Below, piece by piece: positions 1 to 60,514 of a DNA stretch of 64,000 bases. Each line of letters begins with the position of its first letter. Within the stretch, counting starts at the first letter, position 1. Location of the stretch: assembly GCA_045837725.1 (NCBI GenBank), contig JBEWZL010000083.1, positions 186,001-250,000 of the forward strand, given 5' to 3'. The stretch comes from Vermamoeba vermiformis (Eukaryota). A model generated the notes under the pieces. That model did not search any database and was not told the origin of the DNA. It saw only the letters and a list, made by a program, of their open reading frames with translations. The position numbers were made by a program, and so were the translations under genes.

Positions 1-1067
1 CGCGCGCAGTTGGAGGACAGCAAAAGCGACAGCTGTGACAGCAGACACCACGCACTGCTCATTCGCGTGCTTGCGGAACAACTCCAGTGCAAGCCCGAGC
101 AGGTATACCCGCTGTCTGTATACCGTTAGTTGTTCCGCGCTAATCATTGCAACTATTTCACGGACAGATCCGCGAGTTCGAGCTGTGTGTGTGTGACACG
201 CAGCCAGCAGCATTGGGCGGGGCACTGAACGAGTTCATCTTCTCCGCGCAGCTCGACAACTTGATGTGCTCGTACTTGGCCGTGCAGGCACTCATTCGCG
301 CGGAGGGTGCGGAGGCAGATCCGAACATCAAGCTGGTGGCACTGTTCGACAACGAGGAGTGTGGCAGCGAGTCCGCGCAAGGAGCCAACAGCAACATGTT
401 GCAGCAGGTGATTGAGCGCGTGATTGCCAGTCTCAATCAGCAGCGGAACAACTCCGCCGAACTGACGCACGTGACGCTGCGCAAGTCATTCCTCGTCAGC
501 GCGGACATGGCCCACGCCATTCACCCGAATGTAAGTGCAGCTAATTATAGCCCCTGCTGACAGCTGTCACTAGTACCCCTCCAAGCACGAGCGCAATCAC
601 GCCCCGGGCATGCAGCGCGGACCAGTCATCAAGCACAATCCTAATCAGGCAAGTGCACTTAGTGTCACGTGATCACTGACCAATCGCCGTGCAGCGCTAT
701 GCCACCACACCTGTCACCGCGCACCTCTTGCGTCTGATCGCCGAACAGCAGCACATTCCTTTGCAAGAATTCGTCGTGCGCAATGACTCCCCGTGCGGCA
801 GTACGTACTGGCACTGTGCCACTGTTGTGTGTCGCACTAACCCCGTCCTACACAGCCACCATCGGTCCCATTCTCGCCTCCAAGCTCGGTGTGCGCACAG
901 TGGATCTGGGTCTGCCGCAGCTGAGCATGCACTCCATTCGCGAGATGGCTGCTGTCGACGACCTCGTCTACGGACTGGATCTGCTCCGCGCAGTGTACCG
1001 CTCCTTCGCGACTGTCGATGCCACTCTCGTAGTCGACAAGGCCCTCGCGGATGTCACGCTGAACTGA
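1..1067 (+). CDS. DNPEP: Aspartyl aminopeptidase (peptidase M18), 3' part; multi-exon, 5' end outside the window
   Basis: Spliced exons give M18 motifs [50 protein letters not shown] and QLSMHSIRE. Stop at 1065-1067. Confidence 0.93.
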
Positions 1068-1631
1068 GCGGAGAATATTGCCCAATTTGTACACACGTCA
1101 TTCGTGTGGCTAAACACTTGGCGCATAAAATAATTGTCGAATGTTTCGTACAAAATACGTTAATGCAGTTTGATAATCCACAACCCCCATCAAATGCACT
1201 TCTCAAGGCACCAAAGAGCCGTGGGAATGGTATGGCCCAATAATACTACCCCTCCACTCCGTTATCAGGACTTGACTACGAAAAGGCAATCGAAAGTGGA
1301 GAGGTGTGGCTAGTTTATCGAGCCCTTAACTCATATTCAAGAAGTAGAAATATGTCACACCCGTGTTTATTCTTTTTGTACAACGACATACAACTATTTA
1401 ACTGTAGTATTCTAGCCCACTAACAACTTTTGCAAGCGATACATTTGGTTGTAAATGCGGTGCGAGTGCCAAGTGCGCGTGAAGATTGAGAATTCTCGCC
1501 CAGCAAATTGGACGAAATTTCGTGTCACGTGCCTCCTTGGGATTGTCGAGGTTACCTGCACGGAGCTGAATAAAAACCCAACGCGTCTGTTCGGGGCATT
1601 ACATTCAATCCTACTGATATAACCAACACAC

Positions 1632-3021
1632 ATGGAGTCTTCACAACGACGATTGCGCACCGTATTGAGCCACTTGAACGAACAGCCGCAAGCTCAATCT
1701 GTTCGCGTTCAACATACTAAAGCTTCTCTCCCTGACAAGAGCGATAATGACGTTGTGATCGTCAGGTAATTATTATTAATAACGATAAATTGCAACCTTG
1801 ATTATTGCACGATCAGATTGATTTATTATTATTTCGAATATTATTATTAATTTCAAAATTAGTGCTGTCAGAACACCCATTGGTAAATCCAAGAGAGGAA
1901 ATTTGAAGGACACTCACTGGACTGATATGTTGGCCCATGTCTTGAAGGAAGTTGTCGAGCACGATCCCAAAGTCAAATCCGGCATTAAGAAAGAAGACGT
2001 CGATGACATTCACGTCGGTATTGTGCTCGCACCAGGAGGTGGTGCCACTCAAGCACGTCAAGCCATGTTCTTGGCTGGCTATCCCGTCGAGACTTCGATC
2101 ACCACGCTCAATCGCCAATGCTCCTCTGGCTTGCAAGCAGTGGCCAACATTGCTGCTGCGATTAAGAACGGCTACATCAAGGTCGGTGTTGCCGCTGGTG
2201 TCGAGTCCATGAGCGGTCACGACATGATCCGCGCCGTGGGTGAAGTGAACGAGAAGATCTTCGACAACGCGCAGGCACGTGACTGCTTGCTGTCCATGGG
2301 CCAGACCTCCGAGAACGTCGCGGAACAGTTCGGTGTGACGCGCGAGGACCAAGATCAATTCGCCTACGAGTCCTATCGCAAGGCCGTGGCTGCCATCAAG
2401 AGCGGAAAATTCAAAGAAGAAATTGTTCCGCTGGAGACTGAAGTCGTCAAACAAGACGGCACGCGCGTCAAAGTGACGGTGAGCGAGGACGAGGGACCGC
2501 GCGAGACTACACTGGAGAGCTTGAAGAAGTTGAAGCCCGCGTTCAAGCCCGACGGCAGCAGCACCGCCGGCAACAGTTCGCAGACGAGTGACGGAGCCGC
2601 TGCGGTCTTGTTGATGTCGCGCGCTGAGGCCAGGAGACGCGGACTGCCCGTGCTCGGCAGATTCCTCGGCTTCCACGTGGCTGGTGTGCCCCCCGCAGTG
2701 ATGGGCATTGGACCAGCTGTGGCTATTCCGGGTCTGCTCAACAAGTTCAACTTGACTGTGGATCAGATCGACGACTTTGAAATCAACGAGGCCTTTGCAT
2801 CGCAAGCACTCTACTCCATTCGCAAGCTCGGCATCAACATCAACAAGGTCAATCCCTTGGGTGGTGCCATTGCCCTCGGTCATCCTCTCGGCTGCACTGG
2901 TGCGCGTCAGGTCAGCACGCTCTTGTACCAGATGCGTCGCGAGAAACAAAATCTCGGCGTGATCTCGATGTGCATTGGTACTGGCATGGGTGCTGCTGGT
3001 CTGATTCAAGCTGAGTATTAA
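1632..3021 (+). CDS. ACAA1: Peroxisomal 3-ketoacyl-CoA thiolase; 2 exons, intron ~1766-1862
   Basis: Thiolase motifs NRQCSSGLQA, EINEAFA, GAIALGHPLG and SMCIGTGMG. The N-terminus MESSQRRLRTVLSHL contains the PTS2 nonapeptide RLRTVLSHL (1650-1676). Confidence 0.93.
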
Positions 3022-3150
3022 GTCATAGTACCTGCCCCCTATTGTAATCATAATAATCAAATTTTGCATAAAATCTGATTTCAACCGAGTACAATCTTGC
3101 TTGTAAGCCTGAGTGCATTACTATTGTAACAACTAACCCTTACGGTACAA

Positions 3151-6100
3151 TTAAAACAACACATCCGCTACATGCACGCATTGTTTGTCGTGCTGCAGTG
3201 CCACGAGATTGACGTAACACTGCTGGTGCGCGGTGCCCCAATGCAGATACACGTGCACCAAGGCGTGCACTGGCTGCGCGACTGTCTTGCTCTTGGCGTT
3301 GAACAGCTCCACTTCAATGCGATACAGGCCCGGCACTGCACGGCGCAACAAGTACTCTTCAGGCCCGAGACCATTGGCCATGTCCTTGCTCAACGTGCCG
3401 CCGTTCTGCGTCGTGTTGTTGAAGGCGTAGCAGTGCGCCAAGCCGGGCTCGTACACGTGCAGATTCAGATCCACTTGATCCAGATCCCACTGCACCGTCA
3501 CGCGCAGATCAATCTCGAGTGGAATGTCGAGGTCTATCTTCTGGTGGTGCAGCAGCTGCATCAACTTGTCGCACTGCGAGTAGTGCTCGTCCAACAGCTC
3601 GCTCATCAGTCGCACCGCGCGGTTCACTTCCATCAGTGCCACCACTTCTACTTGCGTGAAGCGCACGTCCCACTCTTTTTCCTAAAATAGAAGGTGTCAG
3701 TTTCGTGTCATCACGTGATAGTATTTTAATTCATTCCAACGATACTCACGATGACATCTGTCAAAAGTGTCAATGCACGTGTCAAGTCTCCGCGCACTCC
3801 TCTGCGCACCAGCACACGTGCCAGATCGAGATAACTTTGCGGTTCTTCACTGCGGAGTGCCAGCACGCGGTCGTAGAGGTGTATTGCGTGCTCAATCAGC
3901 GCGTGTTGTTCGCACGCGTAGGCCAACAGTCGCATCCACTTGTGCTCGTTGAGCTGCGACTCGACCATGTTGGACAGCACGCGCAGTCCGACACGTGACA
4001 GCTCTGCGCCCTGGTTGAGTAATTTGCAGCCGAGGTGCAAATAAAAGTACGGAGTGCGGTGCGTGACGGAATTATAGTAATTCCGCAGTGCCTGTTCAGT
4101 GCTCACGTGCTCCTCGCGCAGCTCCGCAGACTCGTACAGGTGCAGCGTGACTGTCTTGCCGAGCGGCGTGCAGTGCTGGCGCGATCTATTTTTAGCGTAC
4201 ACGAATGAGGGTGTGGCACGTGACACCGGAACAATATCCTGACTGAAGTCCATCAAGTTGTCCTGTTCTTCCAAGAATGAGCTGTATTCCGAGGGCTCGG
4301 AAGAATTGTCGCTGCACGATGCAATCTCCGAGGTGGGAGATGCAGAGCGAGATCGCACCAAGCGTTGTTCCGGCGAGGCAGCACGTGAAGTGATACGACG
4401 TCGTTTGGGCAGTGCGCTGAGCTCTGCGTCACGTGCTCGTTTGCGCGAGTCAGTAGCGACCCGCTCTTCGGGTAATTCCGGGGAATAGTTCGGGGAGGTC
4501 GGGGAGTAATCGGGGGACGCGGGTGAGTAGTTCGGGGAACAGGCGGAGTACACGGGACTGTGCTGCGCGGAAGTGATGTTCATCGCCTCATTCTGATTGT
4601 ACGCGCACGAGGTCGGGGCGGAGTACTGCGAGGTCGGGGAGTAATCAGGGGAGGCGGGCGAATACTCCGGGGAGTGTGGCTCGTAACGCGGACTGCGGGG
4701 CGAATAGTGCGGGGAGGTCGGGGAGTAATCGGGGGACACGGGTGAGTAGTGCGGGGAAGTAGGTGCGTACTGCGGGGAGGTCGGGGCATAGCGCGGGGAG
4801 GTCGGGGTGTAGTTCGGGAGATTGAGGCTGTGATGCACCGAGTGCGGGAGGTAGTTCGGGGAGACCGGGGAATAATTCGGGGAGGAAGGTGAATAGCTCG
4901 GGGTGACGGGAGAATATGTCGGGGAGGTCGGGGTGTAGCGCGGGGCAGTCGGGGTGTAGCGCGTAGTTTGAGGCAGCAAACGAGGCTGCAAAACTGCAAG
5001 TGACACGTGTCGTTCAGCGTGTTGCGCCATGTAGTGCGAGAACGTGTCTGCAAAGTTGAGCGAGCTAAAAATAGGTCGGGAATATTCTTGGCGCCACATA
5101 GCCATCAGCAGCTCAGGGCTCTGATCGCGTGTCATCTGCTGATTGACAGGTGTCACTTCGAGTGTCGCACAGCGATCACTGTCGTGCGTGTCGACCAGGG
5201 CAGAGATGCGTTCAGATTCGAGTTCGCTGTAATGGCGCGGTGGCACGTGATGCAGTGTCATGCAGGGTTTGACACCTGTCATCGACCAGTCACGTGACCA
5301 CCAATCCAATCGGCGCTGCCACCAGTCCAAAGCATGGTGCCATCGATGGCGCTGCTTGTTGAACGCTTTTCTTTTTTTGGCAGCGAGCAAGAGGTGATAC
5401 TGCTGGTGGCACGTGGCATGGCTGGCGGGCGGTTCAATCTCGTAGCGGAGATACTGCGAGACATCATCGAGTACGATTAAGGAAGTCGCGCCAGGAGTGA
5501 CCAGGCCAAACAGCCGTCCTATTTTTAGCAACGCTTTCTTGCTCTGCTCTTCGTTCTGATTGGTCACCAACATCTCTTCGATCTTCTTGGAGGCTAATTA
5601 TAGAACTGGTCAGCACCATTACTATAAATGGCAAGCAACGTACCGAAGAACTTGGGAATGAGGGGTGCAGCGGTGACGTCATCGAGCTGAATGGTGAGAG
5701 TCACGTGCTTGCTGACCACCACGCGACTGCCATAGCCAAAGTTCTGCAACGGATTAGAATGAGCATAACCAAATATGGTAATATCGATGCGTACCATGGT
5801 GATGGGCACGGTGATGGAGTTCGATTTTTTCACTGAATCTGAAGTGACAGGTGTCACCGTGACTTTTCCTGTCAAAATGAAGTTCGCGCGGGTCAAAGGA
5901 GTGGCACGTGATGGATAAGTCTCCAGCGCGACACCGGGTATCTCCGCGCTGAGATTCAAAAACGAGAAGTGAGGTCTGCCCACCGTTCTGAGCACGTGAT
6001 CGATGCTGCTGTTTTGCAGATTAAAAAACACGCCACCCTGTCAAATGACACGTGTCAAACAGAGATCTCAGCCAACCATGTCACGTGACTTACCGTAGTC

Positions 6101-7410
6101 TGTGCGAGTGCGCGCAAGAGAGCAGCGTTGTGCACGACATTGGCAGTGACGGCATACACTGGCGCAGCTATTTTTAGCTCGGTGAAATTAACGCGCGCTC
6201 CAATAGATGAAATTCCGTCGGAGAACAACAAGATGTAGTCGAACACGTGATTCAGTTTGACACGTGTCATAATGCTGAGATCAGTCGCGCCATCGTACTC
6301 AATGCTTTGCAGAAATTGCAGCAGTTGGGTGACATCGCGCTCTTGCTTAATTTGGAAAATGCGTTCTTCTTCGCACTCATTTCTAAATATGTACACGACG
6401 AGCTTGACGGGCGCAGTCAACTCTTGATTTAGTAATTGCCTCATCAAACTGCGAGGGTCAGTACGATTGCTTAATTAGGAAATAAGTCACTGACCTGAAC
6501 TCAACGCTCTTGTCAGTGGCACGACTCAACGATGCATCCCAAAATAGACCAATTGTCTTGGGTTCATTGACACGTGTCATTGACTGCTCGTTGACTTGCG
6601 GCACGTGACAGCGCGCAATGAAGTAGTGACAGCTGTCAAAGTAGGTGCTGTCATCGGGGTCAGTCAGATCTGACGCGCGTTGCGGTCTGATCGCGCGAGT
6701 GACAGTTGCGCCATCACGTGGGTCAAATTGAAGTGTCAAACCACGTGACATCCTGAGATTGGTGACACGTGTCATGGCCTGGTGACCAGCCAACTTGAAA
6801 TTAGCATCGCGTGCTGCAATATCCGGGGCGGTGAGTGTCACGTGCTGCGTGAGTTCATTGTGCGTGATCACGTGACAGCTGAACGTGTCAATCGGTGCGT
6901 TGAATGAGAGGGGCACGCGACACACTCCCGTGTCAATCAGGGACACGAATCGCAGTCGAATGCGTCGGCCAGACTTGGGCACTGGGTACACGCGAATGCG
7001 GTATACATTGCCAGTCACGTGCTCGCAGATTGCAATTCTGCCCGCGACAGTAGATCTGACCGCGTTTTCAAAGGCCACTTGAGCTTGTTCGCGCTCAACG
7101 ACCACGCCCTGGACAAGCACGGAATCTATGTCAACCTCAAAGCCGGACACAGTGGCGCCTTCAGTGAGCACCAAGGTGATCTCTGCCTCCACGCCAGTGC
7201 GCGAGGTGGAATTGACAAAGTGGATGTCCACTTCTGTCTCTAAACCACGAGAGATGAGCGCGAGGGATAGGGAATTTGTAACTAATTTATGTAATTGGAT
7301 TATTTACCTGCAAGATAATTATTTAATTCGATTTTTAGGCTGAGATCGCGGATTTGAAGTTGTTGGCCATCGTCCTTCGCAACGACTTTGATACAACTCG
7401 TATCCGCCAT
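3151..7410 (-). CDS. VIT + vWA-like + TPR + DUF2135/YfaP-type protein with an inserted Pol II CTD-like heptad array
   Basis: ATG at 7410, first intron 7307-7240. VIT-like AETEVDIHFVN..GATVSGFEVDIDSVLVQGVVVEREQAQVAFE; vWA-like LFWDASLS..YDGATD..LFSDGIS; RSEEPQSYLDLA; C-terminal DLRVTVQWD..DLNLHVYEP..GLGPEEY typical of DUF2135. Confidence 0.8.
4470..4958 (-). repeat. 21-nt tandem coding repeat encoding ~20 YSPTSPx-like heptads
   Basis: Translation reads YTPTAPR YTPTSPT YSPVTPS YSPSSPN YSPVSPN ... YSPTSPH YSPRSPR ... YSPASPD YSPTSPN YSPE; the plus strand shows recurring ggggaggtcggggagta units. Confidence 0.95.
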
Positions 7411-7745
7411 ATTAGTGCACTCGCTCACAATATACTATAACAGCCTTAGTTGTGGTGTTCAACGGCCAAAATAAAGAATAATAAATTTCAAAGACTTAGC
7501 AAGTTTTCAAGGCCGAAAAAGATTAGAAGATTCTAACAGCATTAGCGGACTAAAGTTGTTCGTTTGTGCTTGAAGGCCGCCAACATCTTGTTGTGCAAGT
7601 CGGACCTAAATCGCAAATTATGCCGAGTAAATTTCTACCGAAGAGTCGGATCGCGATACCAACAGTTGATCTCAACTGAGAACCACAAAACAAGTATTCG
7701 CACAAATACTACAATAGTCCAATAGACTACTAGTAGCGACTGCAC

Positions 7746-8850
7746 ATGGGTCTGGAAGAGAGTTATGAAGTGCCCCCACCCTGCACTGCGGTGCCCTGCA
7801 TGCCCCCACAGGGTTCTAATGTTGTATATGAACGTGCTTATGATCAATATGGACGTCCTATTATTGTAGTGCATCAACAACCACCGCCGCGCACGCAGAT
7901 GAATTATGCAACAACGTAAGATTTTTATTTTAACTTTTACCGTTGGAATACTACTAGGACATGTATATACTATTTGTATTATTATTATTGCTTCAATTTA
8001 ATTTCGTATTAATTTGCGACTGACTGCCTTTAGCGTACCACAAGCGCACACCACTCCACCCCTGCAGCCCAGGTACCCAGGCTACATGCAGAGCTATCAG
8101 CCCCCGCCACAGTACCCCCTGCACACCACTACCAATCCCTATGCGACGGTGAGTACTGCGCAGTATCCTGGTCAGTACGCACATCCGAGTCCCGGTGCGC
8201 TGTTGACTACACCAGGGTACTACTACATGCCTGCGAGTACTGTCAATGTGCCAGCAGCCACCACTAGCACCGCACCCACTGCTGTCCAAGTGCCCACGAG
8301 TGCTGTCAGTGTGCCGAACACTGCGCTGTCACACGTGGCACTGCCCGTACTCGCACCACTCGTGTCAAATACTGAGCAGCGACACATGTCAAACACCGAC
8401 CTCCCCGCATCCACTGTCACTGCAGCGGTCACTGCACCCACCGATCACGTGACTGTGCCGCACACCGCAGATTCAAACATTGATCAACAACACGTGTCAA
8501 ATTCCGATTCGAACGGTGGCACACTGCCAGGGCTCACTCCGCTCGTGTCAAACACTGACTCGCAACCCGTGTCTAACACCAACCTCGAAATCAAGTGTGA
8601 CACATTGCCAGCCAGTGACCCAGAGCCCCTCGTGTCATTCACCAATGTGACTGTCATCAACAGCGCGCCCTTGCCTGGTGTTGAGACCAAAATTAGCGCT
8701 GAAAGTGAGACTAAAAATAGCAGTGCGAGTACAGTGCAGCACAGTGACGCCAACAGCAGCGAATCACCAGCCCGTGTCAAGAGATCGTTCAATCCACTGC
8801 CGCGTCGCCAGCCTGCTGTCAAAGCCTATCTCGCGCACGAGGAGCTGTAA
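7746..8850 (+). CDS. Hypothetical low-complexity Pro/Tyr/Thr/Ser-rich protein
   Basis: Exon 7746-7915 splices in frame (GTAAG..TTTAG) to the ORF at 8034-8850. No recognisable globular domain; the true start may be further upstream. Confidence 0.6.
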
Positions 8851-9137
8851 TGGACCCCCACATCTATCATGACACGGTGACGCGCGATGTAAATAGTATT
8901 ATCATAAATCTTGTTCATAGCAGCTCTTGCAAATATGATTTGAGCGTTGGTAGATGTATTAATAACATTCACCATCAGAGTTGTTGCGTAGTCTTTTCCT
9001 TATTAGGGAAAGTGAGTAAGATTTCGATTACCATAAATTTCATGCAACAAAATCCCCTGTTCGAAACTGAAACAAGATAAAAACAACCACAGTAGATCAA
9101 ATTATATCTCAGTCATCACAGCCACACCACAGCCTTC

Positions 9138-11676
9138 ATGGAGGATAACAGTTCCGTCAAGTCGCTAGCGGAGCGGTTTCAGCAAAAGATCTTTGCCCAA
9201 GCGCCGATCGACTCGTTGGGCCTTTCTCCAGTAATGACGAATTTAAATTCATTCACAAGGCATTATTAACACTCTAATACGCAGCGAGGGCCAATAAAGC
9301 GACCTCAAAGTGTGCCTGATGATGAGATCAGGGTTAACACAGCACGCGAACGAAAAGACTCGAAGGAATCCATTAGCGTGCCCACTACACCTATGAAAGC
9401 CATACCTAAGGGAATGCAAATGCCACGCAAGAACTCTGAACCTATTGGTATTTAAAAATTGACACAGATCCAAAAATCTTTTAAATTTTAGTGGCCAACA
9501 CCTGATTTTGATTCGCAACTATTAAATCTTCTTTTGAACATGTATTATAACTGATTTTCCTAACGATTCTGCATTTCCAGTTAAAATTGCCGATAAAGAG
9601 ACCAATCCGCTTAACAAACGCCATAAAATCGTTAGTGAATTGCTAGAGACAGAACAAAGCTATATCAAGTCCTTGCAATTTATATTTGATGTAAGTGCTA
9701 GATTTCAGTAGATACGGTCCTATAAACGCATGTCATAATAAGTTTTTAACTGACATCCACACAGAAAGCTTTGACACCTCTGCGAGATGACAACAAAACA
9801 AATAAAGAGAATCCAATATTGAAATTAGACGATATCTTATCGATATTTTCAAATTGGGAGGTCATTCTGAAGTGTCATATCACGCTCGGAGATACAATCG
9901 CTGAACGGCTCAAGACGTGGGATGACAATCAAAAAATTGGCGAAATATTCCTCGAGGAAGTACGTACATAGAGCGCATTATCATTTCAACACTGGATTCT
10001 GACAATTTATAGACTAAATTCATCAAACTCTACACCTATTATGTCAACAATTTTGACCAAGCGAGATCTGTGTTAACAAAGTGCCGCGAGAACAATAATA
10101 GATTTCGAGAGTTCATCGAGGTACGCGATAGGCAATCGAATTACATTTGTACCGTCAGAACAGATTATTAATTCACTCGCAGACTCTCGAGCGCGATGAA
10201 GCCAGTCGCGGGCTGTCCTTCGACTCGTATTTGATCATGCCCGTACAACGCATACCGCGCTACGTCTTGTTGCTGCAAGATCTGCTCAACAACACCGTCA
10301 AGGAGCACCCTGACTACGAGAACATTGTCGGTGCGCTGGGTCGAGTCAAAGACTTTGCCAATTACATCAATGTCAGCAAGCGTCAGACCGAGAACTTGGA
10401 GAAGTTGCGCGCCATTCAAGACAAGCTGGAGAGTGGTGCGGATAATATTGTCAAAGAGGGCAGAAAATTTGTACGCGAGGGTGCAGCAGAGGTGAAAGAC
10501 AAGAAGAAAAATGTGAAGGCGCAGTTGTATCTCCTCTCTGATCTCCTTCTCATTACCAAACCCAAAAAAGGAAAAGAAGCGGTGATCGCAGATCTCGACC
10601 TGACAGCCTGCGCAGTGACCGATCAAAGCGAAGATCCACCAGGGTTCACCATCGCGACACCTAATGGTCAGTGGCGCGTGACATTTGACGACAAAAAGAC
10701 CAGTGACAGCTGGCAGAGTGCACTGAACACGCAGGTGAAAGAGACCATTGAGAACTTGGTTGGGAACTCCCCGAAACAAGAAGGTACTACTGCCAATAAG
10801 TGCTATTTATATTCCGTACTAACCTAGTGATCAGAGAACATTGAAGAGTTGATTGCAGACTCGGAAGAACAGAAACAAAAGAACTATCTGATGCGCATGA
10901 AGATCATGAGTGAGCTCGTCGAGAAAGAAGAAGAATACGTGCACATATTGAAGCTGATCACAAACTTGATCACGCGCTTGAAGAGCTCCGCTGAGGACGG
11001 CAACAAAGTGATCACGCTCGATATGATATTGAGCATCTTCAGCAGTTGGGAGATGTTGAGCAAGTGTCACGAAGATCTGCTCGCGGTGTTCAAAGGCAGA
11101 CTTGAGCACTGGCAAGACAAGCCACTCATTGGCGATGTGTTCATTGACAAGGTATGCACCATGACACGTGTCACTTGCGTACTAACAGCGCTGCAGAATA
11201 CAGGATTTTTCAAGTTGTATCGCCACTACGTGACCAACAGAACGGAGCAGACGAAGGCCCTTGAAGACGCGCTCGCTGCAGCCCCTTTGTTTGTCATTGC
11301 CATCACGGTATTAATATCACTGTTGACATTGCAGGACTTGAACTGACACGCCACCCCTCAGGAGATTGAAGCGATGGAGAAGAAGAAAATTGAAAAGATG
11401 TTGGAAGAGCCCTGTCGCCGCTTGTCGAGCTATTATTTCACGCTGCAAGAACTGCTGCGCAACACTAGTCGCGATCATCCCGACCATCAGAACTTGATTG
11501 CAGCTGTCAAGTACGTGCAAGAGATGAACAAGTCCAACAACGAGCAAGACGACTACTTCCCGGACTCGCCCTCCCAGACCACGAGTCGTCCTGAGCTCAA
11601 GAAGAAGCGGTCAAACTCCAACTTCAACGGCATGTTGAAGCGACGCAACACGCAGGACAAGAAGGACAAGAAGTGA
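9138..11676 (+). CDS. RhoGEF with DH-PH-DH architecture
   Basis: DH1: KRHKIVSELLETEQSYI..SYLIMPVQRIPRYVLLLQDLL..HPDY. PH: KFVREG..LYLLSDLLLITK..W. DH2: RMKIMSELVEKEEEYV..EPCRRLSSYYFTLQELL..HPDH. Confidence 0.9.
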
Positions 11677-14075: not shown

Positions 14076-14207
14076 ATGTTCTGAATAAACGCACTATTTT
14101 CCGTTGTAGCACTCGCTGATTTATACTCCGCGTACTCTTTTATTTACATTAAAAAACACAATCCAATGGATTCATGATATATTCAATCATATTAGTAGCT
14201 GAGGGCA

Positions 14208-16215: not shown

Positions 16216-16246
<31 letters not shown>

Positions 16247-50470: not shown

Positions 50471-53400
50471 AGATGACTACTCGTCCAGTTCCTTCGACTT
50501 GTCGTCCATGGCCATGAGTAACATGATTCAGCCGAGCATTAATTTTAGACGCCAAATGCAGACGCAACAAGAGCCCTCAGTGACGACATTCACGAACACT
50601 GACAGCGACGACTACTGGTCACAAGTCAATGTGCAACAGCAGCAACAGACGCAGCAGTTGTTGCAATTGGAGAACTTGTTGGTGCAACAGTCCAAGATCA
50701 ACAACTTGCACGCGCAACCGACTGTTATCGATGTCTTTGCAGCTATTCAGAAGGAAATGAGCGACGATCGATCGGTGCCACGTGACAGCCGAGTGGTGTT
50801 GTACAACGACGTGCCTTATGTCCCCGCTCAAGCCATTGCATCTACTTCACAACTAGACAACGAGTTAAACAAGTTGAATGAGTTGTTCGAGGCTGGATTT
50901 ATCATCAAAGAACAATACCATAAGAGGAAAAGAGATCTCATCGAAATGAAGGATCGATCGTTCGATGTCACCGTGCCACACTCAGATTACAGTTTCATTG
51001 CTCTGTCCTCAGGCAAGAGACAGCGCACTGAAGGCTCAACACGCAGCACTAATCGTAACATTCGTGTCTTCATTTCATCGACTTTCCGTGACATGTCTGA
51101 TGAGCGTGAGGCCATCATGAAGAAAGCAATTCCTGAGCTCCAAAAACTTGCTAAACAACGTGGTGTATTCTTGACAGCTGTAAGTACAAAAAATGTTGTT
51201 CATATCAACTTCTTACTAATATTTCCTAGGTCGATCTTCGCTGGGGTATCACGAGCGATCAAACCAACGAAGGCAATACATTGAACATTTGCTTGGCTGA
51301 AGTGGACAGATGTCGTCCGTACTTTGTCGGTCTCTTAGGTCAACGTTATGGTTGGAGTCAACCTTCATCGCGATCTAAGGAGACTGGACTGTTGAACGAA
51401 GCAGATCATCTCTTGAAGAAGACTTTTGACCGCGCACAACTCAACTACCCTTGGCTCGGTGACTACCGTGACCGGTCAGTGACTGAGTTGGAGGTAAGTC
51501 CTGGCTAGATTTCATTGCGTAAAGAGGGTATTAATCAGAATTTAGGTTCGACACGCTGTGTTGAATGATCTTCAAAGTGACAGCGCATCTCGTGCATTGT
51601 TTTACCTCCGCAGAAGCACACCAGGGTAAGTAGTGAAAAATAGGTGTTTCTATTTGCATAGTATTAACAACAATTAGATCCCGCGACGATGACCCCCGTT
51701 TGACTACATTGAAGGACGAGCTGTCGTCTTCATCTCTCAAATGTGCTCAATACAACTCTGTTGACGAGTTGGCACGCAAGCTCGTTGAAGACTTCAAAGT
51801 GCTGCTCGATCGTGATTTCCCCGCCAGCTCTGCCCCAGGTCCTCTCGACATTGAACGTGCCGGTCACATGGCCTTCCAAGAGTCGCGCTCTCGCGTGTAC
51901 ATTGGTCGCAAGCACTACTTTGACAAGATCAACGAACACTTCTCAAAGCCCAATCCCGGTCCTATTGTTGTCGTAGCTGACTCAGGTCTCGGTAAGAGTG
52001 CCTTGATGGCCAACTGGATGGTGCAGTACGCTGGTGGCGACGATGGTCGTCATTTGGTCATTTCAAACTACATTGGTTGCACAGCTGCTAGCACAGATCT
52101 CGGGCGATTGTTGCGCCGCATTTGTGCCGAAATTCAAGACTTCTGGAAGATCGACAAGCCAATCCCTACGGAGCTACCAAAACTCATCGAGAAATTCCCA
52201 GAATGGTTGAATGAAGCTGATGCACGCGGAGGCTGCACAATTTTGTTCGATGCAATTAACCAACTTGAAGCCAAGGACGACGCACACCTCTTGCGTTGGT
52301 TGCCGCGCAAGTTCCCTCCCTCTGTTCGAGTTCTCGTCTCTACTACACCCAGCACTTGTTTGCAATGGTTGAAGGATCGCGAATGGAACACAATGACTGT
52401 CGAGCCATTGACCACTGAAGAACGCAAGAATTTGATCGAAGAATACCTAGGTCAATACGGCAAAAAGATGACTCAAGCGCAAATTCAAAGGTAAACAGGT
52501 CGTACTACACTAGCGAGTGCTTTTCTAACACGTGAAACAGAGTTATGGCGTCCAATGCCTGTCAAAACCCTTTGTACTTGCGCACACTGTTAGAAGAGAT
52601 CAGAGTGTTCGGCAGCTTCGAACAGCTCGATGCGCACATTGACAGATATCTCCGTGCACAATCACCGCCTGAGCTCTTCCAACTTATCTTCCAACGTCTC
52701 GAACAAGATATTACCACTGTCGTCAACAGCTCTGTCTTCTCGGGTGCCAAATTGACCCTCGTATCCGCCGTGCTGGCTCTGTCTTGGGTCGCTCGTCGTG
52801 GTCTGACTGAAGTCGAGTTACTTGAACTGTTGGGCATCACAGCCTCGCAATGGGCTCCTCTTCACTTGGCCCTCGAAGAAGCTCTCGTGTCCCGTTCAGG
52901 TTTCTTCACGTTCTTCCACGACTACATGCGTCAAGCAGTCGAGTCGCGATACATTCGCAATGCTCAACCTACGTACCGCAAGGCCATCATTGAGTACTTC
53001 ACCAAGAGTCAATCCCAACGATGACAAGCGCGTGTACGAAGAGGTTCCTTATCAACTTGAACAATTGCAAGACTGGCGTGGCTTGGCAACGTTCATCACC
53101 GACTTGAAGAACTTTGACAAGTTGTCGCGCGGTGACAGCAAGTTCGATTTGTACCGCTACTGGCGCGCTGTCTCGAAGATGGGCGGTCAAGACCCCGAGA
53201 GCATGATCTTCAACAAGATTCAAACTCTCGCCAAGGAGACACCCGAGGAGAGTCGCAACACTGTGATGGACTGCCAAGCACAAGTCGGCAAGTTCTTGGA
53301 AGACATTGGCACGTACGAAATGGCCGAGACTTTGTACAGAGATTCCCTCTCACTCGCAGAGGAGCTCTACAAGCCCAACAGCAAAGAGGTGTTGGCGCGT

Positions 53401-54953
53401 GTCGACGACTTGGCTTACTTGTTGGTACGTATAATGATACTCGCGAGTATGACGCGTTTACTAATTCCTTCAATAGCGTCTCCGCGGTAAATACAACGAC
53501 GCTTTGCCTTTGTACAGCCGAGCCTTGCAAATCAAACAGGCACTCAGCCGCGAAGAGGACGCACAGTTGGCTCAAATCATGAACAGCACCGCCGTCTTGT
53601 ACAGATTGCGCGGTGAATACGACAAAGCCGAACCGTTGTACATGAAGGCCTTGGCCATTCGTCAGCGAATCTTTGGTGAGATCCATGAAGACGTGGCACA
53701 GTCGTACAACAGTTTGGGCTGTTTGTTGCAAGACATGGGTCGTTACAAGGAGGCTGAAGAGAACTTCTTGAAGTCCATCACGCAACGAGAGTTCTTGCTC
53801 GGTGTCAATCACCCTGATGTCGCCATGTCACTCAAGTACGTATCGACAGCATCAGCTGAGCGTTATATATCTTTTGCTAACCATTCCGTTACTAGTAACT
53901 TGGCTGGATTGTACTTGGACTGGAGCAAATACGACAAAGCCGGTCCGATCTACAAGCGCGCCTTGTCCATCTATCAAATGGTCTACGGTGAAAATCACCC
54001 GAACTACGCGCAGACCTTGAACAGTACGTGTTCCTATTGTCTGAGTAATGACCTGACATTTCCTTTTTAGGTATGGCCGGTTTGATGCAAGAACAAGGCA
54101 AGTTCTCCGAGGCCGAAGTGTTGTACAAGAAGACAGTGGCCATCAAAGAAAATCTCTTGGGCAGCATGCACCCTGAGCTTGCTCTCACGCTCAACGACTT
54201 CGCCGTGCTTTACGCGCGTCAAGATAAGTTCCCTGAAGCTGAAAATCTTTACCGCCGAGCCTTGCAAATCCGCAAGACAGTGTTGGGAGAAAATCATCCC
54301 GATTTCGCGCAGTCGCTCAGTAAGTCTACAACTACCTCCTCAATGCTCAATCTAACGCGTCAATAGAAAACTTGGGCTCGTTGTTCCAAGACCAAGGCCG
54401 CTACCCCGAAGCCAAGGCCAACTACGAGCAATGTCTGCGCATTCTCGAAGCTTCATTCGGTCGCAAGCACATGGACGTGGCGAGTGCCTTGCATCACTTG
54501 GCAGCCATCAATCAGCTGCAAGGCCTGTACAACGAGGCTATTCCGCTCTACAACCGCGCCCTCGACATTTACTACGAGTTGTTGGGCCCCGTGCACGCAG
54601 ACATTGCGTTGTCATTGAACGACTTGGCCATTTTGTACTTCAAACAGGGCAACAACAAGAAGGCCGAAGAGTACTACTTGAAGTCGATTGACAACTACAC
54701 GCAAGTGTTCACTCGTGTGCACCCTGATGTCGCTCAAGCACTGCTCAATATTGCTCAGTTCTACAAAGCAACTGGTATGATGAAATAGGTTGACACGCGT
54801 TTATTCAGCATAACTAACATATCTTTTATTTTAGGTCAAACCGCCAATGCCAAGAAGTTCTACCAGGAATCGATTGACATTTTCACGCAAACACTTGGTG
54901 CCTCGAACCCTCGCACGCAGAACGCTGTTGCAAGCTCCAAGAGTTTGAAGTAG
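49322..54953 (+). CDS. NPHP3/TEP1-like STAND protein: H3/CTD-mimic N-terminus + SHOCT + DUF4062 + NACHT-like NTPase + TPR array; one apparent frameshift near 53007
   Basis: SHOCT-like LNKLNELFEAGFIIKEQYHKRK; DUF4062 IRVFISSTFRDMSDER..DLRWG..CLAEVDRCRPYFVGLLGQRYGW; Walker A ADSGLGKS; Walker B ILFDAINQL; NPLYL; kinesin-light-chain-type TPRs (HPDVA, HPELA, HPDFA). Confidence 0.88.
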
Positions 54954-55105
54954 TGCGACAAATGAATCTCAGATCCGTTGTGGATTTTGATGTAGATGTT
55001 GTAGATTTAATGTGATAAATATCTGTTTATCAGCAAAATTTATTCGTTTGTTTTCTTTAGCTATTTACATTTTATTTACAAATTATTATTAATTTTATGT
55101 TATTA

Positions 55106-57603
55106 TTATTCGTCGTCATCTCTCTTGCTTTTGACGCTTTGTAATGTGGCCAAGGTCGCTGAGCGTTGCATCGTAAACATCCTATGATAGGTTAGATTAT
55201 GTTGTTGGGGCTCATACGGAAGCATCAACTTACATTCGTTTCAAGCGAGTTCTGCGTGCTTCTTTTCGATTCAATTCGCTCTGCACCATGTTCGGGTCCA
55301 CGCTGTTGAACACTTCCAAATTGAGCGTGTAAGTGTGATCAGTGCTCGTGACTTCACTCTTCTCTTTGCGCGCTGAGTTGGGAGGCGAAGAGAGTGGCGA
55401 CACGGGCGAAGAACGACTCGTGAAGAAGTTTGACGGCAAGGACGAGGACAAGGGGCCAGATGTCAAAGTGTCATTCGAGTTGACAGGTGTCACGTGATCA
55501 AGCTCTTTGTCTCCTTCCTGTGACTGCTCTTTGGTCTTCTTTTTGTCGAGTCCTTTGAACAAGTTCTTGCTGCTCAATCGCTTCAGGAGTTTTTTGGCCT
55601 TGTTGCCAATACTCGCCAAATTTGATTTTTTGCGCGGACTCGTAGTGTTAGTGTTTGACACTTCAGCTGCACGTGATTGTTCGAAGAGTTTTTCTTTGGA
55701 TGACACTTTGACACGTGCCAACTTCGGAGACCTCGGGCTAGAACTAGCAACGTTTTGACGCGGGCTTACGTTTGACATGTCGTTTGACGCTGGTGGCTCG
55801 TCTTCGAATTTGACGGTCAAATTGAGTTGCGTGCGCTGTCTCTTGAGCACCGGCGACAGCTCTAGTGGTGTGACATTCGGTTTGACACCTGTCATTTGTG
55901 GTGCTGAGTTGACGCGCATTGCTTTGCTGTCAGTGACGGCACTTGATTTATCGACCGCGGACACAGATTTAGGAATGACAGGTGTCACTGTCGCTGTCAT
56001 CTGCATGACTGCTGGTTTGACACGTGTCACAGGCAATGTTGCAACTGGCACGGGCGAGACAGATTGACACGTGCTCTCGACCTCGGTGGTGTCAAACGAT
56101 GATCTGTACGTGCTGATGGTCTCAAAGCTCAGTTCACTCTCGCTCGAACTCGCATCTGGATCGAGCAACATGCCGCGCGAGATCAAGTACCGTTGTGTCG
56201 CTTCGAGCAGGCGCAGTTGTCTGGACCGCTGTTTCACAAACGAGTAGTCGTGCTTGTCAGATGAAATTTCATTCGCGTTGCGGGCTCGAGGCTCGTTCAG
56301 ACCAGCGCTAATTTTAGAACTCTTTTTGCGCGCGTAATCGGCTTCATCAGCTGTTCTCGAGCGTTTTCGATGTTGAGTTCGTGCACCACGTCTTATATTA
56401 GAAATTAATAAGAGATAATTATTTAGAATTCCTAAAATTATGATTCGATTTCAAGATCGGATGTTACCTTTGTTTCAAAGGACTTAAATCAACCAGTTCT
56501 TCGCTGTCTGATTGGTAGGACCACGTAATGCTGTCCTCTTCGCTTTCAGACTCGATAAAGCTGCTGCCGCTTTCTCGTTTGGCTTGCTTCAATCGATCCG
56601 TAAACAACATCATATTTTCTAAAAAAGGAAATTACAACCTGTTTCAATATTCGGCATTTGTGTGGACTACAAGATCAATAGTATTTGAAAGCGTACTATC
56701 AATTTTAGACCTTGTTAACGAAAGCTTACCAAGAGATCTGGCTGGCGGCTGGTTTTTCAGTTTTACGGCTTGAAAGTCCAATCTTTCCTTCCTATATGCA
56801 TTAAAACATTAATATTGGATTTATAATATTCAATTAAATGTCTTGCACGAGACGGTTCTGCGAAGTTAGGTGCAATAATTTTGAAAATTAGATCAAAAAC
56901 AAATTGGTATTTTGATTCTCGTAATAGAGGACGATACAAACCTTAAAGGACCTGGAGATAATCCATTGTCTCTATTCATTGAGTCTAAAGCCGGAATAAA
57001 TTAGCTACCATAAACCAGATCGAAAAGGGATCTTGTTTTTCAGGATCTGACAACTATTGATTCAAAATGTCGAAATATTGAGTAAATGTCCGAGTATTAT
57101 TGCTTGTTGTTCATCATTGATAAATCTTTTTCAAATTACACAAGACCACACTGTAATTTGAGATGCGCCACGTGAAAACAGATTTCGTTCGCAAGAGCAC
57201 AAATATCGAGCGTTATCAAAAGAAGAGATAAATTAGGTAAAATTAACTGTTATAAACCAATTTAAGCTCTAAATTTGAAACTGAAAGCGAACGGGTAGTT
57301 TTCAAAGTTTAATTTAATTTAGTGACGCGCAATCCAATTAAAGTTACCGTTGTAATTTAATTACATACCGATTTCTACATCCATATCTGCAGAGCGGCTT
57401 ATATTAGGTTTTTGTTGTCTTCTTTTCATTGCAGGTGAATTGGGGGAAGATCTGGTTCCGACGCCCAGTTTGACATCTTGATCCGCCGTCGCTTTTCCTT
57501 CTTTATAATTGGAATTCAACGAGCTCTTGCGAATGTGTTGCGATATTTTACGTCGCACAAGCTCGTTATTGGAATACGAGCGAGTTTTATGTTTGATCTC
57601 CAT
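55106..57603 (-). CDS. Hypothetical Ser/Lys-rich, largely disordered protein
   Basis: The 335-aa ORF at 55230-56237 splices in frame to a terminal exon (stop at 55106); several upstream exons have GT-AG junctions. No domain recognised; 5' structure uncertain. Confidence 0.6.
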
Positions 57604-57835
57604 CCTCCGACCACAGATTCGATAGCAGCGGCCGTTGCTGGTGGCTTAGAACTAATATTAATATTGTTGTGTGTTGTCGTTCGTTCAATTTGCGGGAAAT
57701 TTAATCTCATAAAGCCAAAAACACGAAATAAAGCGAAAAGATTTTCTTGTGACACACGTCAAAAATTAAAAGTCAAATTGCCAAATTATTCCACTGCCGA
57801 AGACCGGTATAAACCTACACTGATCGGAACTGATT

Positions 57836-60514
57836 ATGAAATGCTCATTATGGCGAGCAACAGTGCTCCTGGGAAGAAATTTTCCTCATCCGACGAAATC
57901 ACAGAGCGCGTCAATATTTCAAGCGAAGAACACAAAGCCCACTACACGACACAAGAAACATAAGACATTGATTTCAAATGCGACACGATGCTCGTACACA
58001 CGTAAGAAGGTTGTCAAAACAAACTTGGCAGTGTAAATAATAACTCAAAAAAATTAGATGTGCAATTTTATTCGACACAGAAGCGAGATACATTGCTTGA
58101 TGTTGATGACGAAAATGATATAGGTATGTAATTACGAACGGAAAATTGCGAGAAAAAATAGAAAGAAATAGTTTTAATTTTTTTATGAATATTAGACTTT
58201 CAATTATTTTTCAAGCTCTTTAGTTGCGGTAAAACGACCACAAAACGCGCAAAAAATACTAAAAAATTTAGACAATTTGATAGAACGTGGATATTTGCTT
58301 GCAGACGAGGATCCAAACCAGGCACTAAATATTTTCAATCGAATAATTGCTATCGATGAGACTAATGAGCGAGCACTATACGGAAAAGGTAACATGTTGT
58401 GTGTATTATAAACAGCAACTGACAAATTTACTTGACTTATAGCCGTAGCGCTAGAAAAGCTCGATCGGTTGGATGAGGCCCTGGCCTACCTAAATAGACT
58501 CTCTACATTGCACCCAGCCACATCCATATCACTACTAAGAGCAGAGATTAATTACAAGTTGGTATGCTGGCTACAAAATCGCTGTAACGGATCTGACTGA
58601 ACTTTAGCGAAATTTCGAAGTAGCCAGACTCGACCTGGAAGAGACAGTATCGATCTACCCAAATAACAAACGAGCGTGGGTGTTATTAGGGCACACAATG
58701 AGCGAGTTAGGCAGAGAGTTTGCAGCTTACGCGTGCATTTGTTTGGATCGCGCATTGGAGCTAGATCCGTACGATACTGCTGTGCTTGAAGCGCTGTGCG
58801 AGTACAGATATCGACTAGGCGCGATGTTCTTCGACTTTACCATCAGAGATATGAAGAGATTGCTCGCTGTGGACCCGTGGTTGGAGCAGATCTGGCTCAA
58901 ACTAGCCTCCGTCTACACCGACATTGGAGAATACGAAGACGCATTGCAAGCATTAGACCACGTCCTAAATAAGGATCAAGACTCATACCTGGCCCTATTT
59001 AACAAGTCTATGGTGTTATTCCGCTTGGAACAGTTTGAGCCAGCGGAACAACTCTTGCTGCGCTGTTTTGACCTGAAAACAGCCAATGAGAAGCAGCTAG
59101 GCAAATGCTTTGAGTTATTGACGTTAATATACACCAGTCAGGTATGGCTATATGATAATTCATATGTAATTTTAACGTGACTATGTAGGGCAAGGTTGAA
59201 GAACGAAAAAAATTGTCGCAAAGCTTTGTGGAACGATTTCCGATGAGTGTGGCAGGCTGGTTTTATTTAGGACGTGCTTACATGACGAGTGACATGGCCA
59301 TTGCAATGAAGTACTTTGAACAAGCGCTCAGCATCGACAGCAATCACCTGCGGTCATTGGACGGCATGGGCTGTGCGCTGTTCACGAACGGAAAATTAGA
59401 CGAATCAGATAAATATCTGCAAAGAATATTTAACATCAATTATACATTTGAGATCGGCGAGACATTCGGTACGTCATTCATGAACGGTGCTTAAAATAGA
59501 TTGTTGACGAACTCTTCGCAGTGGAAGAACAGTTGTACGGCCAAGCTCATGCCCTGCTCGATCATTTGATGCAGCAATATCCGCAGCACGTGCCTCAACT
59601 GTATTACTCCAAACAGTTCGTGGCTGCGCGGCAAAAAGACTACGCGACGGAATTCAATTATTTCTTGAAAGTGTTGCAGACCTCCGAGAGTCTGATCGAT
59701 GCTGCCAACTATTTGGGCATGACGTAGGTACCGTAATAATAGCGAAGTTCATTCTAATAATTCTATCCAGCAATAACTGGTCAGGGGCCATGAAGATTCT
59801 AGACGAATTAATCCAACAAAATCCGCGCAATGTACACGCACACATTGAACTGGCCAATTTATTGCTCGAAATGGTAAATCACTGACAAATACATTGCTCA
59901 CAATTGACACGTGTCACAGAACGAGCCTGAAGACGCACTGGCCAGGATAGCTATTGCAGAACAAATCAATCCATACGAATCTGAAGTGGTGAATGCAAAG
60001 ATGACAGCGCTGTCGCAGATTGACGCGCGACTCGACGAGGCTGTGCAGCTGATTCACATGCACAAAGATCGCTCTACCGCGCACATGGCCTGGAGCGAAG
60101 TGCACAGACGACGAGGTAGGCCAAACGAACACGGCAACAGAATTGTTTTAACAACATTGTTCGATAGGTGAATTCAAAGAGGCACTGCGACGGTGGGAGA
60201 TTGGCTGGAGATTGAACAATCCTGATCTCCCAACTGGCGGCTCCCTAGTCTATCGATACGCGTTGTGGCGTCAAAAAGCGAAGATTTTGGAATCGATGCA
60301 CGACACTCGCGCAGCTATTGACGAGTACTCGAAGGTGTTGCAGATCAATCCGAACGAGATGTGGTCATTGGAACACTTGGCAGAGCTGTGTTTGGACTGT
60401 GACCGCGTTGACGATGCACTCGCTGCAGTTGGGCGGTTGTTGGCACAACGACCCATGCACGACACTGGTCTTGCACTTAAGCGACAAATATTGGCCAGAA
60501 AAAAGATGACGTAA
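57836..60514 (+). CDS. TPR-repeat protein with probable mitochondrial presequence
   Basis: Many TPR-consensus helices (ALELDPYD, YEDALQALDHVL, AIDEYSKVLQINPNE). The N-terminal ~60 aa are basic, lack acidic residues and end in ..RCSYTHVQFYST. Confidence 0.75.

Follow-up and report, generated by a model that had tools for sequence, protein, structure and literature searches.

The E-box or G-box, CACGTG, is the site of bHLH, bHLH-ZIP and some bZIP dimers, and the dimer sites of animal TALE homeodomain proteins (TGIF, MEIS, PKNOX) have GC or GG at their centre. Among known words that bear comparison with the one described below, TGACAGCTGTCA is described as bound on opposite faces by two TGIF1 homeodomains (in the excerpt of PMC6158717 used here; PDB 6FQP cited there), ACTAACACAYAG is tabulated as a fixed motif joining branch site and 3' end in the introns of Trichomonas (and Giardia) (PMC13548475 Table 2, citing Vanacova et al. 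2005), and the cyanobacterial palindrome HIP1, GCGATCGC, is given as 15- to 300-fold over-represented, able to exceed one copy per gene (PMC5861425) and tied to orphan methyltransferases (PMC4390886), as far as the excerpts of these papers go. Here we describe a 12-bp palindrome, TGACACGTGTCA, that recurs in a 64-kb stretch of the Vermamoeba vermiformis genome (contig JBEWZL010000083.1, positions 186,001 to 250,000; henceforth the window, with coordinates counted from its first base), together with the family TGACA-NN-TGTCA to which it belongs. The data comprise the window and 5.2 kb from one relative.

The exact word occurs 15 times in the window against 0.01 expected, and the form with G or C at both central positions (S-S centre) 23 times against 0.02, none of 100 dinucleotide-preserving shuffles yielding more than one copy of either. 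All 15 exact copies and the eight S-S variants listed in a preliminary description of this stretch were recovered where it had placed them, and a search allowing any centre brought the total to 25 by adding 3752 (TC) and 63720 (TG). The geometry is strict. The inverted TGACA/TGTCA pair is found 25 times at a spacing of 2, against 0–2 copies at each other spacing from 0 to 12; the everted pair at spacing 2 is found once, and everted and direct arrangements overall give 0–2. The centre dinucleotides are CG (15), GG (4), CC (2), GC (2), TC (1) and TG (1), i.e. S-S in 23 of 25 copies and GC, GG or CC in eight. Seven of the ten one-mismatch neighbours of TGACACGTGTCA are altered at the two centre positions (P = 2.7e-4), which marks the half-sites as the constrained part. 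Occurrences at 0, 1, 2 and 3 mismatches number 15, 10, 14 and 38, and since simple arithmetic gives chance counts of about 0.004, 0.14, 2.3 and 23, exact copies make up a large share of the family. The palindrome stops at 12 nucleotides (nt), with complementary flanking bases in only two of the 15 exact copies, and the T and A at its two ends, each 6 bp from the centre, are retained in 15 of 16 GACACGTGTC copies. Flanks are preferentially of A/T type, G after TGTCA being rare (3 of 50 arms). Family density is about one per 2.6 kb, and the word as such has about one copy per 2.6–4 kb. The runner-up 12-nt palindromes have two copies each, and this restriction of the excess to one specific word rules out a general palindrome-making mutation process. 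The CpG observed/expected ratio of 1.07 gives no sign of heavy CpG methylation; CA/TG dinucleotides stand at 1.22.

Eleven copies are intronic, 14 lie in coding exons and none is intergenic. RNA evidence consisted of transcript-like contigs from three runs and raw reads from a fourth, aligned to positions 1–20000, where it gave at least 15 spliced joints with ends GT (or GC)..AG. All 15 introns start G[TC]A and are 41–132 nt long, mostly 41–57 nt. The set of 62 introns used below comprises these 15, three added by hand and the remainder from a crude gene predictor, which recovered eight of the 15 RNA-confirmed introns and was used for compartment sizes and codon nulls only. Among the intronic copies, 558, 15942, 19103 and 19439 are RNA-confirmed (the joint around 558 was seen in three contig sets and raw reads), 6046, 11162, 33056, 33977, 37426 and 59905 were assigned by GTA..YAG boundaries and open flanking frames, and 63720 was read by eye via the sequence and the encoded GYSASDIRELVKEAAM motif. 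Exonic calls rest on continuous RNA contigs (16923), a reading of the last exon (39132, the sole copy flagged as unannotated by the predictor, but coding), long open reading frames (3752, 5144, 5270, 5845, 6258) or translation in the proteins of relatives (6568, 6627, 6763, 55481, 55883, 55976, 56018). The 25 copies are as follows.

558–569: variant TGACAGCTGTCA in the 43-nt intron 531–573 (+), RNA joint 530/574; CTGAC, ending 4 nt before the intron end.
3752–3763: variant TGACATCTGTCA, exonic, in the VIT-domain gene on the minus strand; read LTDV, with a predicted 5' splice site 2 nt away.
5144–5155: GG-centre variant in an exon of the minus-strand gene, read VTPV.
5270–5281: CC-centre variant, exonic, read MTGV, with GTCACGTGAC 18 nt off.
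5845–5856: GG-centre variant, exonic, read VTPV.
6046–6057: exact, in the predicted 56-nt intron 6038–6093 (−), 8 nt before the 3' end; TTGAC, branch distance 17.
6258–6269: exact, exonic (−), read MTRV.
6568–6579: exact, exonic (−), read MTRV.
6627–6638: variant TGACAGCTGTCA, exonic, read FDSCHY, the sole copy in the other frame.
6763–6774: exact, exonic, read MTRV.
11162–11173: exact, in the predicted 45-nt intron 11152–11196 (+), immediately beyond the 5' splice site; the intron has a CTAAC branch site of its own farther downstream.
15942–15953: exact, in the RNA-confirmed intron 15938–15992 (−); CTGAC, branch distance 13.
16923–16934: exact, in an exon of a minus-strand protein kinase gene, read VTRV, overlapping GTCACGTGAC; RNA contigs continuous over 16102–16971.
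19103–19114: exact, in the RNA-confirmed 46-nt intron 19072–19117 (+); CTGAC, branch distance 12, then CAG.
19439–19450: exact, in the RNA-confirmed 57-nt intron 19403–19459 (+); TTGAC, branch distance 18.
33056–33067: exact, mid-intron in the predicted 54-nt intron 33030–33083 (+), 16 nt before the 3' end.
33977–33988: exact, in the predicted 51-nt intron 33943–33993 (+); TTGAC, branch distance 14.
37426–37437: exact, in a predicted intron ending at 37444 (+), branch distance 16, with two extra TGACA just upstream.
39132–39143: exact, in the final coding exon of a gene on the plus strand (..FDMLTRVKAGEE..), 76 nt before the stop codon.
55481–55492: GG-centre variant in an exon of the minus-strand open reading frame 55233–56450, read VTPV, overlapping GTCACGTGAT.
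55883–55894: CC-centre variant, exonic, read MTGV.
55976–55987: GG-centre variant, exonic, read VTPVI.
56018–56029: exact, exonic, read VTRV.
59905–59916: exact, in the predicted 46-nt intron 59874–59919 (+); TTGAC, branch distance 12, then CAG.
63720–63731: variant TGACATGTGTCA in a minus-strand intron at about 63714–63775 with an AAG acceptor, in an AAA-ATPase gene, ending 7 nt before the 3' end and with two more TGACAC upstream.

As previously proposed, nine of the 15 exact copies are intronic, whether judged by RNA joints or by splice-site and frame analysis, although annotated introns span only 3,725 nt (5.8% of the window; P = 2.7e-8, still 1e-5 if half of the introns were missed). As a correction, the introns of 6046 and 15942 belong to the minus strand. 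The word also proved intragenic, as had been suggested: the 23,138 nt (36% of the window) that belong to no predicted gene, other long open reading frame or intron contain no copy, for which simple arithmetic gives 0.64^25 = 1.4e-5, or about 0.01 if some ten genes are counted instead of copies. Given that introns and the unannotated remainder have the same GC content (0.39 in both), composition is not the cause of the contrast between them, and introns nonetheless have the highest copy density. Overall, copy density follows the GC-richer genes, with 15 of the 25 copies in the first 20 kb.

Within exons, the copies depend on synonymous codon choice. Predicted coding sequence holds 14 family members, compared with 0.20 (maximum 2) when synonymous codons are shuffled within each gene and 1.04 (maximum 4) when the null is conditioned on the first base of the next codon; these 14 are 12 truly exonic copies plus two in-frame introns that were read through (11162, 19439), the predictor having missed 6568 and 39132. 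From codon usage alone, exact copies over 9,660 predicted codons are expected at 0.0011 in one of the two open frames and 0.0004 in the other. The over-representation of the 12-mer in the genes of this window, roughly thousandfold above chance, is thus confirmed, and the codon- and dinucleotide-aware backgrounds proposed as a check in the preliminary description do not explain it. That description had also observed that exonic copies are read as (M/V/L)TRV and had suggested that the DNA word, rather than the peptide, is what is kept. The suggestion agrees with the codon nulls. The idea of an exclusive TRV frame fares less well: TxV is read in 13 of the 14 exonic copies, and codon usage already predicts a ratio of about 3:1 (P = 0.10), which leaves the frame without any signal of its own. 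The word occurs in unrelated proteins, one with a VIT domain, one a kinase, one disordered and one unnamed. On the sense strand of the coding sequence, TGACAC occurs 31 times against 9.2 in synonymous shuffles and GTGTCA 26 times against 11.6. The top enriched hexamers there are CACGTG, TGACAC, TGTCAC, CTGTCA and TGTCAA, and family words account for five of the six most enriched of all 4096. When junction context is modelled, z for the half-site hexamers falls to 2–5 and CACGTG stays at 8.8.

In the introns, the word coincides with the expected branch-site position. The palindrome's own [CT]TGAC lies 12–18 nt from the intron end in eight of the ten scored palindrome introns (that of 63720 is not in the set), against a median of 14 (range 7–29) in 46 other introns; with 63720 included, the left half, yTGAC, sits at the usual branch-point position in nine of 11 intron copies. 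For the intron 59874–59919 our script chose an upstream CTGAC, but the palindrome's TTGAC lies at 12. These distances uphold the earlier suggestion that the left half supplies a YTGAC branch-like site, and the spacing of 3–9 nt between motif end and intron end, reported for eight copies and reproduced here as 3, 3, 4, 4, 5, 7, 8 and 9, is what a branch site at its normal distance would give. The branch-like motif nearest the 3' end in the 62 introns is CTAAT in 15, CTAAC in 14, CTGAC in 11, TTGAC in seven, TTAAT in four and TTAAC in four, with none in seven; in eight of the ten palindrome introns the palindrome itself, as [CT]TGAC, supplies the yTRAy consensus. TGACAC would also lengthen the match to the conserved stretch of U2 small nuclear RNA (snRNA) that binds the branch point.

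TGACA is a sense-strand word in these introns, with 30 occurrences against 11 of TGTCA, ten of which lie inside palindromes. Once palindromes are removed, 20 TGACA remain against 3.2 expected; the depletion of TGTCA outside palindromes is not significant (1 against 3.8 expected, P = 0.11). Extra sense copies of TGACA are found in five of ten palindrome introns and nine of 52 others (P = 0.04). The splicing hairpin that had been put forward as one explanation finds no support from folding: the 12-mer alone makes a 4-bp stem of −2.1 kcal/mol, and z values for nine palindrome introns (−1.98, −1.99, −0.37, −0.52, +0.07, +0.81, 0.00, −1.33 and +0.63) are no different from those of five control introns (−1.58 to +0.86). 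In the predicted folds of introns 6038, 19072, 33943 and 59874 an upstream TGACA pairs with the right half and the branch site is unpaired.

Two further features of these introns were seen. Introns 19072–19117 and 19403–19459, in one gene, both carry TGCAGACCTC followed 2–4 nt on by TTGACAC, which hints at an intron duplication within the gene. The extended 5' splice site GTAAGTCA, whose GTCA is complementary to the branch TGAC, occurs in three of ten palindrome introns (6038–6093, 15938–15992 and 19072–19117) and one of the 52 others (P = 0.012).

CACGTG itself is abundant, with 80 occurrences in the window, 65 of them outside palindromes, and 59 against 22–25 expected in predicted coding sequence. 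It clusters with the palindromes. Of ten TCACGTGA sites, eight have a palindrome no more than 150 nt away (1.6 expected for random placement inside predicted genes), as do 26 of 57 other CACGTG sites (8.9 expected; P < 0.0005 for each); the USF/Cbf1-like form GTCACGTGAC clusters beside palindromes, and the overlaps at 16923 and 55481 form TGTCACGTGA. Given this tight clustering, the copies can be said to sit in islands, chiefly at 5.1–6.8 kb, 55.4–56.1 kb, 16.9 kb and 19.1–19.6 kb. The flanks of the copies share 30 pairs of 9-mers (mean 8.2 and maximum 17 for random control sites), almost all of them half-site, E-box or 5' splice-site words, and no longer repeat is present. A repair-driven 'sink' around CACGTG was not seen, only two of 17 scored one-step neighbours falling below z = −2.

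Comparison with relatives indicates that the exonic copies persist by point substitution. Five protein relatives were available for the open reading frame 55233–56450 (69–86% identity) and five for the VIT-domain open reading frame (80–100%); exonic copies persist in relatives of 69–89% identity, and one VIT relative is 100% identical. At none of the seven exonic sites covered do these five plus five proteins have a 4-residue presence/absence indel, from which we conclude that the copies are old and have changed by substitution, and are not recent insertions. Conservation of the encoded TRV in orthologs had been raised earlier as a check. TRV or TPV is invariant in five of five relatives at 6763 (TRVTN, the first residue only M or V, both xTG codons), 55976 (TPVI, the preceding residue V or M) and 56018 (TRV), and the reading is lost or changed at three other sites: at 6568 TRV is kept in two of five (one being the identical protein), has a centre change to THV in one and is lost in two; at 55481 the window's VTPV corresponds to VTRV in four relatives and VTNI in one; and at 55883 MTGV is kept in three of five, with IAGA in two. 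At 6627, D, C and H are kept in all five and the middle residue is S, N or T. The first codon alternates only between M and V (both xTG) at three sites, and changes in the centre (R to P, R to H, S to T or N) leave T and V unchanged. At the DNA level, two short metagenome loci of one relative (L001 and L002) were found with the 485-residue open reading frame; L001 is 76–85% identical to the window, and at 16923 it keeps all 12 bases within a stretch that is 84% identical.

We tentatively read the 12-mer as a candidate site for a dimeric DNA-binding protein, with the geometry of TALE homeodomain sites, kept in transcription units and, in introns, re-using the branch site. DNA-dimer recognition is favoured because of the strict inverted geometry, the fixed arms with a variable G/C centre, the symmetric enrichment of half-sites in exons and the clustering with a second class of dimer site. 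The unit would be a 12-bp element made of two inverted TGACA half-sites with a fixed 2-bp G/C spacer, CG preferred, which a homodimeric or paired sequence-specific protein would occupy, and selection would keep copies within transcription units in islands with CACGTG E-boxes. A gene would then have just two cheap options for holding a copy. In introns of 41–57 nt the left half, TGAC(AC), would double as the branch site; the intron position would be an accommodation, a 46–57-nt intron having little free sequence and its branch site already giving 5–6 of the 12 bases. In exons the word would be spelled by synonymous codons (xTG ACA sst GTC Axx) in tolerant protein segments. If a protein does bind, it may be TALE-like, and one might guess at a gene-body regulatory or chromatin role, perhaps repressive or through polymerase pausing.

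The TALE comparison, already drawn in the preliminary description, is strengthened by the copies at 558 and 6627, which are the very DNA co-crystallised with two TGIF1 homeodomains (excerpt of PMC6158717). The window shares with TALE sites the TGACA half-site, its inverted arrangement with exactly 2 bp between the arms, the 12-bp extent and the preference for A/T-type flanks; GG/CC centres occur here in six copies. It differs in that the main centre is CG (15 of 25), creating a CACGTG core, in its density of about one copy per 2.6 kb, and in where the copies lie: in exons (14) and introns (11), many of the latter at the branch position, and in no promoter or enhancer outside the coding sequence. 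An E-box would account for the CACGTG held by the 15 exact copies and enriched on its own, but the ten of 25 copies without a CG centre keep both arms, the centre is the most variable part where an E-box has an invariant core, an ACGT-core bZIP would reject GG, CC and GC, and the arms reach 6 bp from the centre, wider than the usual footprint. Overall, the interpretation offered in the preliminary description is partly supported.

Several observations weigh against dimer binding as the explanation. Transcription-factor sites would normally be looked for in intergenic or promoter DNA, which has no copy; with introns equally AT-rich and the densest compartment of all, the distribution tracks transcription, and this restriction to transcribed DNA fits a role at the RNA level equally well. 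The dominant centre is CG, not the GC or GG of animal TALE dimers. No DNA-binding protein gene was found in the window and no homeobox match among the 57 open reading frames scanned, and we know of no TALE protein of this organism. All seven extra half-sites in palindrome introns are in the sense orientation and none antisense, which a pure DNA model does not predict. The L001 ortholog of the 15942 intron reads CTGACAC and then GTCA, 2 nt shorter, with the branch half kept and the palindrome broken. At the protein level, 63 of 70 alignment cells (90%; hand count) keep the motif's T and V (or D and C) where overall identity is 81–86%, which does not demonstrate additional constraint. Finally, only 64 kb plus 5.2 kb of a relative were examined, with crude gene models.

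An RNA-level element is possible, if doubtful. UGACAC would act as an extended branch site, and the adjoining GUGUCA would tune its availability to U2, either through weak pairing within the word or by binding a UGACA farther upstream, which would leave the branch site in a loop; exonic copies would then be splicing-regulatory or decoy branch sites. All 25 copies are transcribed, none lying in the roughly 36% of unannotated sequence, and the branch-point distances, the sense bias of intronic TGACA, the extra sense copies in palindrome introns and the four folds that free the branch site all suit it. The Trichomonas motif offers a precedent, being likewise a 12-nt word at the 3' end of short introns with a yTRAC branch followed by AC and a short, constrained distance to AG; as presented in the part of PMC13548475 used here, it differs in being non-palindromic, including the AG, occurring in nearly every intron and having no exonic counterpart, whereas about ten of our 62 introns carry the word and most others have CTAAC, CTAAT or CTGAC alone. 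Such an element is harder to reconcile with the rest of the data. The hairpin is only 4 bp long and the folding z of the palindrome introns unremarkable, and a hairpin in RNA does not explain why the centre should be strictly S-S or the palindrome perfect. Exons hold 14 of the 25 copies, which stand in no consistent relation to splice sites, exonic half-sites are enriched whichever way they point, and E-box clustering is not predicted by a branch-site role. The copies at 11162 (next to the 5' splice site) and 33056 (mid-intron) are off the branch position and count against the element as well. A broader scheme, a gene-body code specified by sequence in this sparsely sampled protist lineage, appears unlikely. 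In it, dimeric factor sites (TALE palindromes, E-boxes and possibly MEF2-like CTA(W)4TAG) would be placed selectively in transcription units and kept out of intergenic DNA, by way of synonymous codons and by occupying the intron branch point; a repressor or pausing factor, for example, could mark gene bodies and couple the progress of polymerase to the recognition of very short introns, and the 12-mer would serve both a protein dimer, as double-stranded DNA, and the U2 small nuclear ribonucleoprotein, as RNA.

Decidedly unlikely, in our view, is an iterated palindrome of the HIP1 kind, kept by a DNA-maintenance system (a modification, nicking/repair or recombination enzyme) and not by gene regulation. 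HIP1 is also a short, perfect and hugely over-represented palindrome, present in coding sequence, persistent and of unsettled function in the excerpts consulted, and our word matches it in abundance, in entering coding sequence through codon choice past codon-aware nulls, in persisting among relatives and in having a central CpG that could be a modification target. According to the same excerpts (PMC5861425, PMC4390886), HIP1 is bacterial, 8 bp long, found in intergenic DNA too and linked to known methyltransferases, whereas the present word is 12 bp long with a variable centre and is confined to the transcription units of an intron-bearing eukaryote, intergenic copies being absent from the 64 kb, where a maintenance signal acting genome-wide would differ. 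In addition, a short-patch-repair drive would deplete the one-step neighbours of CACGTG, which are not depleted, the CpG ratio is unremarkable, and GG/CC and GC centres misfit a single restriction-type word. A mobile origin, whether from a miniature inverted-repeat element, as the footprint of an excised transposon or through an element that generated introns and scattered the word, seems very improbable: the 10-mer common to the two introns of one gene and the excess of shared flank 9-mers could be cited for it, but the shared words belong to the motif, the E-box and the 5' splice site and not to any longer element, the seven exonic sites show no indel, target-site duplications are absent, the flanks do not prolong the palindrome, intergenic DNA, where insertions are best tolerated, has no copy, and in L001 the orthologous intron is present with its copy decayed. 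An artefact of composition or codon usage, or a by-product of a repeated protein motif, has a negligible chance of being correct. The CA/TG excess, the TxV frame explained by codon usage and the half-site z of 2–5 after junction context lean its way, yet the dinucleotide, codon-usage, synonymous and context-aware nulls are all exceeded, the proteins are unrelated and 11 copies are non-coding, which refutes it for this window.

Other over-represented words accompany the palindrome. CTA(W)4TAG, which we take to match the MEF2-type MADS-box consensus, occurs 14 times against 0.63 expected; eight of these are CTAAAAATAG or its complement, six lie in predicted coding sequence and three in introns, and one shares the 43-nt intron with the variant at 558. 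It shows no significant co-clustering with palindromes in the window (P = 0.07). Two AT-rich palindromes are over-represented as well, TATTAATA with 15 copies and TAATATTA with 10; unlike the main motif, they lie largely in unannotated sequence (16 of 25) and may be promoter or terminator words. Positions are as follows.

CTA(W)4TAG: 541, 4186, 5065, 5519, 5594, 6168, 8711, 17080, 31749, 34604, 40634, 43545, 50211 and 56308.
TATTAATA or TAATATTA, examples: 1774, 8957, 20319, 28198, 29225, 32096, 49080 and 57656.

The window is gene-dense, with an M18 aminopeptidase, a thiolase, a large VIT-domain protein, a RhoGEF, kinases, a NACHT-TPR protein and an AAA ATPase. The best named homologues of the thiolase are from Amoebozoa (about 60–62% identity), and unnamed environmental proteins reach 97–98%. 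Rfam and tRNA scans of the window gave no matches, U2 included. The RNA-supported intron 649–694 is of the GC-AG type (GCAAGT..CAG) and holds GTCACGTGAT beside a CTGAC branch site. A gene of about 1,300 residues at 50229–54953 (+), with DUF4062, NACHT and nephrocystin-3-like TPR domains, has the palindrome in none of its roughly ten predicted introns, whose branch sites are CTAAT, CTAAC or TTAAT. At 10132–11343 (+) two adjacent open reading frames match RhoGEF halves in reversed order, the C-terminal half with a PH-like match coming first and the N-terminal half second, which suggests tandem RhoGEF genes or a rearrangement. In the minus-strand open reading frame 3729–5597, the 10-mer GAGGTCGGGG is repeated seven times at 4495–4935 (eight times in the window) and is the antisense of heptads resembling the carboxy-terminal domain of RNA polymerase II (YSPTSP-type; Pfam PF05001 match); the large protein encoded there also has VIT-domain and DUF2135 matches.

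A scan of viral contigs with a 14-mer gave 99 loci, 98 of them single-copy and chance-like. The exception (IMG/VR contig L031, bases 1–9659) is a GC-rich (60%), phage-like sequence with 16 TGACA-NN-TGTCA in 9.7 kb, nine of them exact, in several cases right after a Shine-Dalgarno-like GGAG, where the word reads as stop TGA, CAC, start GTG/ATG and TCA. This use at gene junctions is unrelated to that in the window.

Full-text literature searches on the 12-mer, its 10-mer and 8-mer cores and descriptive terms returned, among the matches listed, only primers and plant G-box or abscisic-acid-responsive elements. The components (TALE dimer sites, E-boxes, extended branch motifs and HIP1-type palindromes) are known singly; a TALE-type palindrome restricted to transcription units, placed at the branch site in about one intron in six and elsewhere spelled into codons, was not found described. 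Were the word an RNA element or a HIP1-like signal instead, it would still be undescribed in a eukaryote as far as these searches show. In this organism it marks about one in six introns of the window and predicts their branch point; it provides a ready bait for a binding protein, and contigs from mixed aquatic samples might be sorted by its density, used as a signature of the lineage. If our reading is true, a single word would be at once a protein-dimer site in DNA and a branch site in pre-mRNA, and in exons would place a third constraint on codons, giving a natural example of multi-layer coding in which factor sites are concentrated within genes and not in front of them.

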